NCBI GenBank assembly: GCA_949500635.1
Contig: CATAWQ010000001.1
Location: forward strand, 1 to 47,774
Source: an uncultured Mycoplasmatota bacterium
GTDB taxonomy: Bacteria > Bacillota_I > Bacilli_A > Mycoplasmatales > Mycoplasmoidaceae
Reading direction: 5' to 3'
DNA length: 47,774 bases
The position numbers and the translations under genes are program-made. This document shows, one piece after another, positions 5,718-12,498 of this stretch. The first letter of the stretch is position 1, and each line of letters starts with the position of its first letter. Below the pieces are notes generated by a model. That model made no database searches. It saw only the letters and a list, made by a program, of their open reading frames with translations, and was not told the DNA's origin.

Positions 5718-7124
5718 ATGAAAAATAAAAAATTATTAAAAACTATTTTATGTATTACTTCAGGAATTGGGTTTGCAACATCAATTCCGTTTATGACAAC
5801 TGCTTGCGCTTGTGGATCATCCTCTACTAAAACAAATATTTTACCTGATGATGTTTATAAGTATGATCCAAACGATTCTGCAATTTTAACAGGTTTTACA
5901 GATGAATTTTTGGCTAATCCCAATGCATACAAACAATATAACACTATGGAAATTCCTGCTAGTGTAACAAGTATTAGTGAAAGCGCCTTTTATAATCAAC
6001 TTACATTACAAACAGATATCCCATTATTCATTAAGAACTTAATTTTTGCAGATGGGTCTAATTGTTCTTCAATCGGTCAAGCTGCTTTTGCGTTATGTAG
6101 CTCGATAAAAGATATAAAAATTGACAACAATTATTTTCATGATGAACAATTAGGAACAAAAGGTAAAGCAGTAATTACTGGAAAAAGAGGACAAATTTCT
6201 TGAAATGATTCATCTGTTGCTGTAGGAAGTTTGGCTTGTGGAGATATTGTAATTCCTGCTAATGTTAGTTCAATTGTAGATTATGCTTTTGGTGGTTGTT
6301 CATCATTAACTTCTATTGATTTATCAAAATGTAATAATCTATCTTCTATTGGGGAAGCTGCTTTTGGATTATGTAACTCAATAAATGATATAAAAATTAA
6401 TAATAATTATTATCACGTTGAACAATTAGGAGCAAAGGGTAAGGTAGTAATTCAAGGAAAAATGGGAACGACTTCTTGAAATGATTCATCTGTTGCTGTA
6501 GGAAGTTTGGCTTGCGGAGATATTGTAATTCCTGATAATATTACTTCGATTGCAAATAAAGCTTTTCAAACGTGTGGAAAAATAACATCTCTTAATTTTC
6601 CAAGTAGTTTAGAATCAATTGGTTATGCTGCTTTAAATGGGTGCATATCATTAACTTCAGCAGATTTTTCTAATTGTACAAAATTATTAACAATTAGTAA
6701 TAGTGCTTTTGAAGCGTGCCAATATTTGAATTTAGTTAGTTTCCCAAGTACTTTAAGCGAAATTGGTGAAGCTGCCTTTTCTAATTGTGTGTCATTAAAT
6801 TCTGTGACACTCCCAAATAGTTTAATCAAAATTGGCAGGAATGCTTTTATGTTTTGTTCATCACTAACTTCTATAACGTTTCCTAATAATTTAATGGAAA
6901 TTATTCAAGGAGCCTTTTACAGCTGTACTAAATTAGGTTATATTGCTTGAGATTTGCCAGATGGATATGATAATAGTATAAATATTGGAAATGATGTATT
7001 TGCTAATATTTCATCTACAGGAAAAGTTAAATCCTTAAATCAATCAATTAGTTCTGATGACTTCTTAGCTTGAATCCAAACTAAAGGAAATTTCCCATCT
7101 AGTGGTTGAGAAGCTGAAGTTTAA
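5718..7124 (+). CDS. Surface lipoprotein with BspA-like leucine-rich repeats (family copy 1, intact)
   Basis: ORFs 5655.., 6231.., 6507.. share one frame across TGA (468 aa from ATG 5718). The signal peptide is MKNKKLLKTILCITSGIGFATSIPFMTTAC with a lipobox Cys. Repeated units of about 23-25 aa follow the pattern IP.nvtSI...AF..CssLtSi. The C-terminus is GNFPSSGWEAEV. Confidence 0.85.
5922..6238. repeat. Left arm of perfect 317-bp inverted repeat (partner 11984-12300)
   Basis: Checked base by base against the reverse complement of 11984-12300 with no mismatch. Weaker similarity extends outwards to the promoter cassette and inwards past 6500. Confidence 0.9.
6060..6534 (+). repeat. Tandem duplication with 276-bp period inside LRR copy 1
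   Basis: 6060-6258 resembles 6336-6534. The near-identical core tcttgaaatgattcatctgttgctgtaggaagtttggcttg(t/c)ggagatattgtaattcctg occurs at 6199-6258 and 6475-6534 (peptide WNDSSVAVGSLACGDIVIP twice). Confidence 0.85.
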
Positions 7125-7219
7125 TAATTAATTTAAGAGAATTATAAAATTGATACTAAGTCAAAACACTTTTTTAAAACACCTTATTTTTATTAATATA
7201 TAATATTAATAAATCATTT

Positions 7220-10200
7220 ATGTCAATCAATAATTGCAAAACTGTCTTTGTTTACAAGAAAAATCAATTTGATTCTGAATCAAATGGGTTATTAAAAGAA
7301 ATTAAAAACTTTTTAAAAATCAACATTAAAAGTATTAAAGTATTTAATAAATACTTAGTGAAGAATGTTGAAAATTCAACATTTGATATTGCTTTAACAT
7401 CTGTGTTTAGTGAACCTATGGTAGATGATTATTACTTAGATAATCTACCTGCATCTAAAGGTTCAACAACATTTGCAATTGAATATCTTCCTGGCCAATT
7501 TGATGCTCGTGCAGAAGCTTGCAAACAATGTTTATTGTTGATAAACCCTAAGAATGAAGTAGAAGTTAAAACAGCTAAAGTTTATCAAATAAAAGGGGGA
7601 TTATCAACTCAAGATCTTAACAAAATTAAGAAATACTTAATTAATCCAGTTGATTCTCATGAAATTCCTGTAAACTCGACAAATTTTCCAATACATGCTG
7701 AAAATAAAGAAAAGATTCAGATAATTAGTGGTTTTACTAGTATGAAAGATGGAGATTTAATTTATTTACATCAATCTCTTTCATTAGCGATGACTATTGA
7801 AGATTTATTGATGGTTCAAGCGTATTTTAGAAAAGAAAAAAGAAATCCTACATTAACTGAAATTAAAGTTATTGACACATATTGATCAGATCACTGTCGT
7901 CATACAACTTTTAATACTAAAATTAATAAAGTTGAATTTGAAAAATCTAAGTATTCAGAATTATTTCAATCAACTTATGATGAATACTTAAAATCTTGTA
8001 ACTATGTTTATGGTTCAAAGGCCAAGACTAGAAACATTTGCTTAATGGATTTAGCAACTATCGCTATGAAGGATCTAAAAAAACATGGTTTACTTAAAAA
8101 TTTAGATCAATCTGATGAAATTAATGCTTGCAGCATTAATATCAATGTTAAAACAAATAAAGGTATTGAAAAATACTTATTAATGTTTAAAAATGAAACT
8201 CATAACCACCCAACTGAAATAGAACCATTTGGTGGTGCTTCCACTTGCTTAGGCGGTGCAATTAGAGATCCGTTATCAGGACGTACGTATGTTTATCAAG
8301 CTATGAGAGTTACAGGGTGTGCTGATCCTACAAAAGATTCAACTAACACATTAGCAGGTAAACTACCACAAAGAACTATTACAATAGCAGCTGCAAATGG
8401 TTATAGTTCATATGGTAACCAAATTGGTTTAGCTACTGGCCAAGTAGAAGAAATCTACCACAACAACTTTGTAGCTAAACGTTTAGAAACAGGCGCAGTA
8501 ATTGCGTGTGCACCTAAAGAAAATGTTGTAAGACGTGCACCAAAAGTTGGAGATGTAGTTATTATTCTTGGTGGTAGAACAGGGAAAGATGGTATTGGTG
8601 GAGCAACTGGTTCTTCTAAACAACAAGTTAAATCTTCCATTACTGAATGTGGGGCAGAAGTACAAAAAGGTAACCCTGTAGAAGAAAGAAAAATTCAAAG
8701 ATTATTTAGAAATCCAGATGCTTCTAAATTAATTATTAAATGTAACGACTTTGGAGCAGGTGGTGTTTCAGTGTCTATTGGCGAATTGTGTCCTGGAATA
8801 GAAATAGATCTTAATAAAGTAACTAAGAAATATCAAGGACTTAATGGAACAGAACTAGCAATTAGTGAATCTCAAGAAAGAATGGCTGTTGTTGTAAATA
8901 ACAAACAAGCAGCACAATTCATTAAATTAGCTAATAATGAAAACCTAGAAGCTACTATAATAGCTAAAGTAACTAACAATAATCGTTTAATAATGAAATG
9001 AAATGCTGACACTATTGTTAATATTTCTAGAGATTTCCTAAATACTAATGGATTTACACAAACTACCGATGTTAAAGTAGTTGCTCCAAAAAACTTAAAT
9101 GACCAACCGATTGCTAATGTTAAAGAAGCATGAATGTCAATGTTGTCTGATCTTAATGTTTCTATCAACACTGGATTGATTCAAAAATTTGACTCAACTA
9201 TTGGAGCAAATACAGTTTTAATGCCATTAGGTGGAATTAATCAATTAACACCTGCTGAAGGTATGGCTGCACGCATTCCTACATTTGGTAAAAAAACTGA
9301 TACATGTTCATTAATGTCTTTTGGATATAATCCATTTTTAGGAGAATGAAGCCCATTCCATATGGCTTATTACTCAGTAATTGAATCAGTTACTAAAATA
9401 GTAGCTATGGGTGGAGACTATAAAAATATTTATTTGAGTTTCCAAGAATATTTTAGAAAATTAGGTAAAGAACCTAAGAACTGAGGTTTACCATTTGCAG
9501 CATTATTAGGTGCTTATAAAGCACAAAAAGATTTATCACTAGCTGCCATTGGTGGAAAAGACTCAATGTCAGGAAGTTTTGAAAAACTTAATGTTCCAAA
9601 TACTTTAATTTCATTTGCGGTTTGTGTTGATGAAGCTAAGAATATCATCTCTCCAGAATTTAAAAAGATAAACTCTCAAATAATTTTATTAAGTCCATTA
9701 ACTAAAGCAGACTATACATTAAGTGATAAATCATTGATTGCTAACTTTAATGCAGTTAAGAAATTAATTGATGCAAAAAAAATTATCTCTGCATATTCAT
9801 TAAAGCATAAAGGCATTGCTGAAGGAATTTCTAAAATGTGTATAGGTAATTCTATTGGGGCAAAACTATCTAACTTATCTAAAGATGAATTGTTTAAGAT
9901 TAATTATGGATCATTAATTTTAGAAATTCCAACTAATATTTCTTTTGATAAAGAATTAAAAGGATTAAACTACAAAGTCATTGGTTACACAACTAAAGAA
10001 CCTAATATTGTCTATGAAAAAATAAATATCAAGCTTAATGATGTTATTAATCGTATTACATCTAAGTTTGAAGATGTATTCCCTTCAAAAACAGAAAATA
10101 AATCTAAAGAAAGTTTAGAATTACCTGTTTGAAATTGTAAACAACATTCATTATTTAGTAAAGTAGTTAAAAAACCAATAGTAGTTATCCCTGTATTTCC

Positions 10201-11424: not shown

Positions 11425-11512
11425 ATATGCTTCTAATATAACTTGATTTTTAATTAAACAATACATTAAAACTTGTATTCTCTTGAAATTTAAATTGTAT
11501 GTGGAAAATAGT

Positions 11513-12498
11513 TTAATTAACATATTCTCAACCACTAGATGGGAAATTTCCTTTAGTTTTTATTCAAGCTAAGAAGTCGTCAGAACTAATTGATGGATTT
11601 AATGATTTAACCTTTCCTGTAGGGGAAATGTGAGAAAATGCATATGTGTCAATATTTACACTACTATAATAAGTATCTGGTAAATCTCAAGTAATATAGT
11701 TTAATGATCTGGATTCAAAAAAGCATATGGACCAATTTTGATTAAACTATTTGGGAGTGTCACAGAATTTAACGACACACAATTAGAAAAAGCACTATCA
11801 CTAATTATTGATAAATTTGTACAATTAGATAAATCAATGGAAGTTAATGATGAACATGCATTAAAAGCACTATTACCAATTGCTTCTAAACTGTTTGGTA
11901 AAACTATTGAAGAAATCGATGAACAATATTGAAAAGCATTAGTTGCAATCGAAGTAATATTATCAGGAATTAGAATATCTCCGCAAGCCAAACTTCCTAC
12001 AGCAACAGATGAATCATTTCAAGAAATTTGTCCTCTTTTTCCAGTAATTACTGCTTTACCTTTTGTTCCTAATTGTTCATCATGAAAATAATTGTTGTCA
12101 ATTTTTATATCTTTTATCGAGCTACATAACGCAAAAGCAGCTTGACCGATTGAAGAACAATTAGACCCATCTGCAAAAATTAAGTTCTTAATGAATAATG
12201 GGATATCTGTTTGTAATGTAAGTTGATTATAAAAGGCGCTTTCACTAATACTTGTTACACTAGCAGGAATTTCCATAGTGTTATATTGTTTGTATGCATT
12301 TGGATTATCTAAAAATTCATCTGTGAAACCTGTTAAGATTGTTGAATCATTTGGATCGTACTTATAAACTTCTTATGGTAAAATGCTTGTTTTAGTAGAG
12401 GATGATCCACAAGCAGTTGCCATAAACGGAATTAATGTGGCTAACCCAATTCCAGATGTAAGACATAAAACAGTTTTTAGTAATTTTTTATTTTTCAT
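11513..12498 (-). pseudogene. BspA-like LRR lipoprotein, family copy 2, disrupted (premature TAA plus frameshift)
   Basis: It has the same promoter/RBS/signal-peptide cassette as copies 1 and 3 (MKNKKLLKTVLCLTSGIGLATLIPFMATAC). An in-frame TAA lies at 12373-12375, where the paralogs have GAT. The frame is lost at a T6 run on the coding strand (A6 at 11717-11722). After a 1-nt shift the conserved tail LNYITWDLPD...GNFPSSGWE reappears. Confidence 0.7.
11984..12300. repeat. Right arm of perfect 317-bp inverted repeat (partner 5922-6238)
   Basis: The reverse complement is identical to 5922-6238. The first mismatches are at 11983 and 12301. Confidence 0.9.

Follow-up and report, generated by a model that had tools for sequence, protein, structure and literature searches.

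The locus

The present study describes an exact inverted repeat in a 47,774-nt stretch of DNA (hereafter, the window), the arms of which lie within two paralogous genes encoding BspA-type leucine-rich repeat (LRR) lipoproteins. These genes, named lrrA and lrrB, face each other across a cassette carrying purL and purE; a third family member, lrrC, is located elsewhere in the window. The initial annotation placed purL-purE between two opposed LRR lipoprotein genes, and Pfam searches confirmed this arrangement. The features of the locus are as follows.

5667–5686, forward strand: run of 20 A (A20) immediately before the -10-like TATAAA of lrrA
5718–7124, forward strand: lrrA, intact gene for a 468-aa BspA-type LRR lipoprotein under genetic code table 4 (PF13306, LRR_5, E=8.8e-55)
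5922–6238, forward strand: left arm of the exact 317-bp inverted repeat, in frame, covering amino acids 69–173 and part of codon 174 of LrrA
6197–6238, forward strand: 42-bp stretch that, with its copy at 6473–6514, bounds a 276-bp unit; the right edge of the identical block is the end of this stretch
6239–6514, forward strand: 276-bp unit present only in lrrA, a structural heterology at the right edge of the block
7171–11427, forward strand: purL-purE cassette between lrrA and lrrB (purL 7220–10975, purE 10975–11424; Pfam)
11515–12498, reverse strand (read from 12498 to 11515): lrrB, pseudogene paralog of lrrA with a nonsense codon, deletions, and a frameshift
11984–12300, reverse strand: right arm, an exact match to the left arm; the public contig L004 ends inside it, at 12038 (55 nt)
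12530–12536, reverse strand: A7 tract preceding the -10-like TATAAA of lrrB; lrrA has A20 and lrrC has A18 in the corresponding position

LrrA has the signal peptide MKNKKLLKTILCITSGIGFATSIPFMTTAC, two 276-bp tandem units, and a conserved C-terminal domain. The LRR_5 domain scored above the Pfam gathering cut-off (27.7) in both LrrA (184.5 bits) and LrrC (107.4 bits). A putative lipoprotein signal, recognized by reading only, consists of MKNKKLLK, a hydrophobic stretch, and TTAC|(AC)GSSS, and was kept in 14 of the 16 relatives retrieved.

In lrrB, codon 42 is an in-frame TAA (12375–12373), and the signal peptide carries substitutions and a 6-bp deletion relative to lrrA. The gene has also lost one 276-bp unit and a further 69 bp, and a deletion of approximately 70 bp shifts the frame, with a stop at 11703–11701 and the conserved 3' end out of frame. 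Most of the LRR region is still in frame. Nonsynonymous changes outnumber synonymous changes in the 3' half, a pattern that looks neutral. The gene retains its own -10 element, ribosome-binding site, and ATG. The frameshifted 3' part was matched base for base by L004, a SPAdes contig from another sample. With its shortened A tract, nonsense codon, and frameshifting deletion, lrrB is a decaying copy. The initial annotation contrasted the A20 promoter and intact 5' end of one gene with the A7 promoter and stop-containing 5' end of the other, and it described the flanking parts as diverged, with substitutions in the signal peptide and a 276-bp unit in one copy only. Both descriptions were accurate.

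The identical block and its flanks

The sequence at 5922–6238 was the reverse complement of 11984–12300 at 317/317 bases, as originally reported. The first mismatches occur at 5921 and 6239, and 317 is thus the exact maximal run. In a repeat search, the block fell within an arm of 521 nt (93% identity) and within an imperfect inverted repeat as long as the genes (approximately 5680–7112 versus 11525–12536). The inner segment between the arms (6239–11983) is 5745 bp.

Outside the block, the identity of lrrA to lrrB was 90% from the A tract to the ATG, 89% at 5718–5801, 87% at 5808–5921, 79% at 6515–6710, 92% at 6777–6848, and 85% at 6932–7112. The aligned positions outside the block showed 102 mismatches among 678 (576/678 identical), which gives a probability of approximately 4e-20 for a run of 317 matches. 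The longest mismatch-free run in 200,000 permutations was 157, and none reached 317. Chance is excluded as the source of the block; its contrast with the divergence of the flanks has a chance probability of about 1e-20.

Among the 15 differences in the 114 nt to the left of the block (5808–5921), 11 were at third codon positions, whereas the block itself had no synonymous difference. At the right edge, the 42-bp stretch at 6197–6238 is a direct repeat that recurs exactly at 6473–6514 in lrrA; lrrB at this point equals lrrA minus 6239–6514. When the alignment is carried through the second unit of lrrA, identity runs for 10 more bases and, after one mismatch, for 30 further matches.

We compared both genes with two related proteins, P0122 (from another metagenome-assembled genome [MAG]) and P0123. 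Over the 66 amino acids of the 5' flank, lrrB matched P0122 at 60/66 and lrrA matched P0123 at 60/66, while lrrA and lrrB matched each other at only 56/66. Over the block, lrrA and lrrB were identical at 105/105 amino acids, and each was 62–67% identical to P0122 and P0123. In this small sample, which was compared at the protein level only, the block and the 5' flank appear phylogenetically incongruent, as gene conversion predicts.

Two other origins of the block were rejected. Purifying selection does not account for its identity, given the synonymous divergence immediately beside it and the divergence of lrrC across it (15–22% over the block region). An inserted mobile element or an RNA gene was also rejected; the block is in-frame LRR coding sequence homologous to family members. 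Rfam and tRNA scans of the block returned no match.

Gene conversion as the favored explanation

The block probably records a recent gene conversion in a variable family of BspA-type LRR lipoproteins, between two inverted paralogs of which one is intact and the other decayed. We infer conversion as the mechanism, and also its recency. The initial annotation had proposed recent gene conversion, and three observations support it: the identity of the block against the divergence of the flanks, its nature as native coding sequence, and the incongruence between the flank and the block.

In this explanation, lrrA and lrrB are convergent inverted paralogs in a multigene family of BspA-type LRR surface lipoproteins, and a recent homologous recombination event would have copied approximately 317 bp from one copy into the other, with either copy as the donor. 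The tract would be approximately 358 bp with one mismatch if the path through the second tandem unit of lrrA is followed. Conversion would have wiped out the 8–21% divergence seen in the aligned flanks. On its right side, the tract would end where the indel of the 276-bp unit interrupts homology, whereas its left end would fall arbitrarily within the coding sequence. The process would need no machinery dedicated to inversion. A crossover in the arms, which frequently attends conversion between inverted repeats, could flip the 5.7-kb purL-purE segment; this would be an incidental rearrangement truncating LrrA and not a designed module swap. The length of 317 bp fits measured bacterial conversion tracts, for which a mean walk of approximately 500 nt per direction was obtained in Salmonella tufA/tufB (PMC5485169).

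Several points weigh against gene conversion or limit it. The donor and recipient are indistinguishable. The organism is presumed to have RecA, the gene for which is not in the window. The block may possibly have a functional role, as a silent donor cassette or via occasional inversion. Furthermore, the window appears to be a draft or MAG contig, and therefore both the exact identity of the arms and the direction of the inner segment hinge on the assembler's handling of the repeat. A repeat edge walked twice yields identical copies by construction, and "perfect" may therefore overstate the identity; a de Bruijn assembler may also have popped a few single-nucleotide polymorphism (SNP) bubbles inside the block.

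If gene conversion is the correct explanation, the locus would provide a clean, dated case of intragenomic recombination shaping a previously undescribed BspA-type LRR lipoprotein family with Vlp-like promoter A tracts in uncultured, probably gut-associated mycoplasmas. It would also indicate that this LRR family evolves by module exchange, similar to the classical Vlp, Vsp, and MgPa systems. Recombination between gene copies is ordinary for the surface-protein families of mycoplasmas, and similar cases are well known.

Assembly evidence

Public contigs were found via exact matches to the PurE, RpsD, RplS, and AlaDH-like proteins. L004 (SPAdes; ENA ERZ13632114) ends exactly 55 nt into the right arm, where a k=55 graph would be expected to branch for a repeat beginning at 11984; this lends indirect support to the identity of the arms. 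In Logan unitigs from this strain, breaks occur at the shared 31-mers predicted for them. One such unitig (4,465 nt) spans 7090–11554, and a Logan contig of 28,842 nt, derived from the run that gave this unitig, extends from the A tract of lrrC to the ATG of lrrB. The contigs with the AlaDH-like gene all stop 104 nt past this gene. All public contigs of the strain end at lrr repeats and none spans an arm; the window contig is the only one recorded with full-length LrrA. An 85-aa ORF that table 11 yields inside the block had no database record. Two Joint Genome Institute metagenome scans, one with a 30-mer of the block and the other with the conserved 5' 37-mer of the family, yielded 0 matches. 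Identical blocks are where metagenome assemblies break or guess, and gene content and orientation at such places need to be checked against reads.

Alternative explanations

The initial annotation proposed that recombination across the arms inverts the inner segment and forms a second layer of antigen variation. In its full form, this explanation holds that 6239–11983 flips at a meaningful rate and thereby joins the alternative 3' LRR module to the intact 5' end and its A20 promoter. The geometry is right for a site-specific invertible element (of the vsa/vsp/vpma/mpl, cod hsdS, or shufflon type), with exact inverted arms inside two opposed paralogs 5745 bp apart, and 317 bp is ample for RecA-type recombination. 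Approximately half of the conversions between the inverted Salmonella genes tufA and tufB carry an inversion of the intervening segment (PMC5485169; Hughes 2000 as cited there), and low-rate inversion at the pneumococcal cod repeats persists in the absence of the recombinase PsrA (PMC7096588). Moreover, lrr copies occur at both synteny breakpoints relative to the sister species. However, no tyrosine or serine recombinase was found among the open reading frames (ORFs) of at least 80 aa in the window, whether inspected or annotated; one may be encoded elsewhere in the genome. An in-silico inversion joined the 5' part of lrrA and the arm to the 3' part of lrrB; the predicted protein, of 267 aa, terminates at the frameshift without the conserved C-terminal domain. 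On the other side of the exchange, the stop at codon 42 is retained, which leaves lrrB null. Therefore, inversion would truncate one gene and would not exchange two working modules. In addition, the nonsense and frameshift lesions are both on lrrB, on opposite sides of the arm, which fits an orientation that was stable for a long time while lrrB decayed, rather than frequent flipping. In known systems, the silent modules are intact. No assembly carries the alternative junctions, although none could, since all break at the repeats. Inversion as a second layer of antigen variation is thus neither shown nor favored, and we regard a segment that flips at a meaningful rate as very unlikely. Programmed inversion is not indicated, while occasional inversion by homologous recombination over 317 identical bases is plausible. 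A recombinase-independent form is conceivable, in which crossovers in the arms flip the 5.7-kb segment between two states, with LrrA alternating between full length and a C-terminally truncated form, the horizontally acquired purL-purE re-oriented, and the arms kept identical by repeated crossovers; a variant treats lrrB as a silent archive. We hold this two-state element to be decidedly unlikely. Inversion would be moderately interesting if reads confirmed it; the locus opens no long-standing question.

Two further explanations concern the nature of lrrB and that of the assembly. The vlhA pseudogenes of Mycoplasma synoviae, MgPar of M. genitalium, and pilS of Neisseria are precedents for silent donors. 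By analogy, lrrB might be a non-expressed archive that donates in one direction to the expressed lrrA, with the block as the latest donation. It is unable to produce the full lipoprotein, yet its LRR region is mostly in frame; the conversion tract links it to the expressed copy, and the family has a modular, mosaic makeup. Mycoplasmas are known to recombine expressed genes with silent repeats (PMC2169797). However, lrrB is the single candidate donor in the window, where lrrC is complete and separately promoted. With a -10 element, ribosome-binding site, and ATG, lrrB resembles a dead gene and not a promoterless cassette, and its conserved 3' end is out of frame with neutral-looking divergence in the 3' half. 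We therefore consider a donor cassette unlikely. We assign a similarly low probability to an assembly artefact, in which near-identical copies were collapsed into one graph edge that was walked twice, producing a spurious perfect repeat with a possibly arbitrary orientation. The window is the whole 47,774-nt contig of an uncultured organism, the other public assemblies of the strain all fragment at the lrr repeats, only one contig carries full-length LrrA, and L004 shows chimeric or mosaic assembly at this locus. On the other hand, the assembler kept the 8–21% diverged flanks apart, such that a few isolated SNPs at most were collapsible and the contrast between the block and its flanks would survive. 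The independent SPAdes assembly branches at the same nucleotide, and the assembled orientation, with one intact and one doubly damaged gene, is biologically parsimonious.

Comparison with known systems

The proposed gene conversion at lrrA and lrrB resembles that of Salmonella tufA/tufB in that two inversely oriented paralogs lie on one chromosome and non-reciprocal transfer occurs in continuous tracts of hundreds of bases with no dedicated recombinase. The tuf genes differ in being both functional, approximately 99% identical throughout, and kept alike by selection and conversion, whereas one copy here is a pseudogene, the flanks are 8–21% diverged, and one short tract is homogenized. Mollicutes in general are not known to possess MutS/MutL mismatch repair.

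Among mycoplasma surface-protein families, the vlp genes of M. hyorhinis have a poly(A) tract in the promoter (PMC10502178, citing Citti & Wise 1995), and mgpB/C recombines with MgPar in M. genitalium (PMC2169797). The lrr family is similar to these and to the chimeric vsp genes of M. bovis in its conserved 5' region and signal peptide, its variable repeat body, the A tract just upstream of the -10 element, and mosaic members arising from recombination. In contrast, the BspA-type LRR lipoproteins are unrelated in sequence to Vlp, Vsp, and MgPa, their tract lengths are 20, 18, and 7 with on/off switching being putative, and the lrr copies are dispersed instead of forming one cluster.

Candidatus Mycoplasma girerdii has a BspA-like family in which phase variability was inferred from metagenomic reads (PMC4206474, PMC5476646). 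It shares with the present organism an expanded BspA/TpLRR family, an uncultured host-associated mycoplasma as its carrier, and assemblies that break in these genes. However, M. girerdii switches via dinucleotide repeats in or near the coding region and its proteins mostly have C-terminal transmembrane anchors, whereas the lrr family consists of N-terminal lipoproteins whose genes have promoter A tracts. De novo purine genes are also absent from M. girerdii, while the organism studied here carries purL-purE.

At the pneumococcal cod hsdS locus, inverted repeats of 298 bp and 85 bp inside hsdS paralogs mediate inversions (PMC7096588). Gene-altering programmed inversions were surveyed systematically in PMC9881135, and M. 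pulmonis vsa/hsd is also of this type. The lrr locus is alike in having inverted repeats inside an expressed gene and an opposed silent paralog, such that inversion would swap 3' modules. However, cod hsdS and M. pulmonis vsa/hsd encode an adjacent tyrosine recombinase, which the window does not, and they keep silent modules intact, whereas the 3' module of lrrB is frameshifted. Both orientations are present within clonal populations in those systems. Silent-cassette systems (vlhA, MgPar, pilS, and vls) have one expression site and several donors. In the window, one defective copy (lrrB) is next to one intact copy (lrrA), and lrrC is a complete gene.

The lrr family and its upstream A tracts

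The third family member is as follows.

41323–42211, forward strand: lrrC (coding sequence 41372–42211, 279 aa; A18 tract 41323–41340; PF13306, LRR_5)

Homology among lrrA, lrrB, and lrrC extends from the A tract through the stop codon. lrrC was 75–92% identical to lrrA and lrrB in patches, with no long identical stretch. Among the relatives of LrrA, the signal peptide was nearly invariant, the number of LRR modules varied, and two types of C terminus were found. The first 80 amino acids of LrrC (41372–41611) were 100% identical to protein P0127 of another MAG, while the remainder was approximately 50% identical. This is a clear case of modules being shuffled among family members.

The A20, A18, and A7 tracts each abut a -10-like TATAAA. 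No -35 element with canonical spacing was found at the A tracts; the consensus scan was uninformative (49 sites versus 43.8 expected) and gave no terminators. The lrrC tract is A18 in the window, and a Logan contig (L090) of another sample, SRR33784715, breaks inside the tract after 19 A. A18 versus at least A19 at lrrC fits homopolymer length heterogeneity. Shortly before the A tract of lrrA, at 5617–5644, a perfect 12-bp hairpin (AACATATTCAAA / TTTGAATATGTT, with a loop of 4 nt) precedes a T-rich run and could act as an insulating terminator.

The purL-purE cassette and synteny

The cassette starts approximately 50 nt upstream of purL and ends at the purE stop. Its DNA was 91% identical to that of a sister-species MAG (L010, 1166–5422), where it is in a different neighborhood without lrr genes. 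The next-best relatives of PurL were from Clostridium species (58% amino acid identity), which points to horizontal acquisition. These comparisons suggest that purL-purE was acquired horizontally and later relocated. Just two non-adjacent steps of the purine pathway were seen in the window.

L004 equals the window except for a 1.4-kb patch inside purL (window 9574–10974). This patch is of the sister-species type, differing by 2–3% from L010 and by approximately 10% from the window, and reflects either true recombination between lineages or a chimera of the metagenome assembly.

In another sister MAG, GCA_948515985.1 (L111, 4690–5564), only two small coiled-coil ORFs, arranged in tandem, separate the AlaDH-like gene from rpsD. 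The points that adjoin there are 28.6 kb apart in the window (12633 and 41283), and each abuts lrrB or lrrC. We take lrrB and lrrC to mark synteny breakpoints relative to the sister species because the AlaDH-like gene and rpsD are near-adjacent in this MAG.

The window and its host

The 47.8-kb window has a G+C content of approximately 26%, and its ORFs are broken up under table 11 and merge into long genes under table 4 (UGA=Trp). Therefore, the window derives from a Mollicute. It carries ordinary chromosomal genes, namely, lysS, rnhB, trmD, rplS, rpsP, gatCAB, ung, dnaB, rplI, rpsR, ssb, rpsF, rpsD, a phosphotransferase system EIICBA gene, tig, and five tRNA genes, and appears to be one whole contig of a draft genome or MAG.

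The nearest genomes were uncultured Mycoplasmatales MAGs. We infer a gut origin for the sister species whose MAG came from run SRR7533634 because this run was cited in two papers on a mouse gut bacterium. The host of the locus is probably an uncultured, gut-associated Mycoplasmatales bacterium.

The neighbors of the inverted-repeat locus encode RmuC, an S33-type hydrolase, and AlaDH-like and DUF2779 proteins. The RmuC-family gene (3361–4551, reverse strand; PF02646, E=1.8e-63) is two genes from the locus. RmuC has been tied to limiting inversions at short inverted repeats in Escherichia coli; the nearness of the gene to the locus is probably coincidental. At the start of the contig (94–2945), there are two adjoining genes for N6/N4 DNA methyltransferases and an ORF of 427 aa without a match in Pfam, which probably constitute a restriction-modification system.

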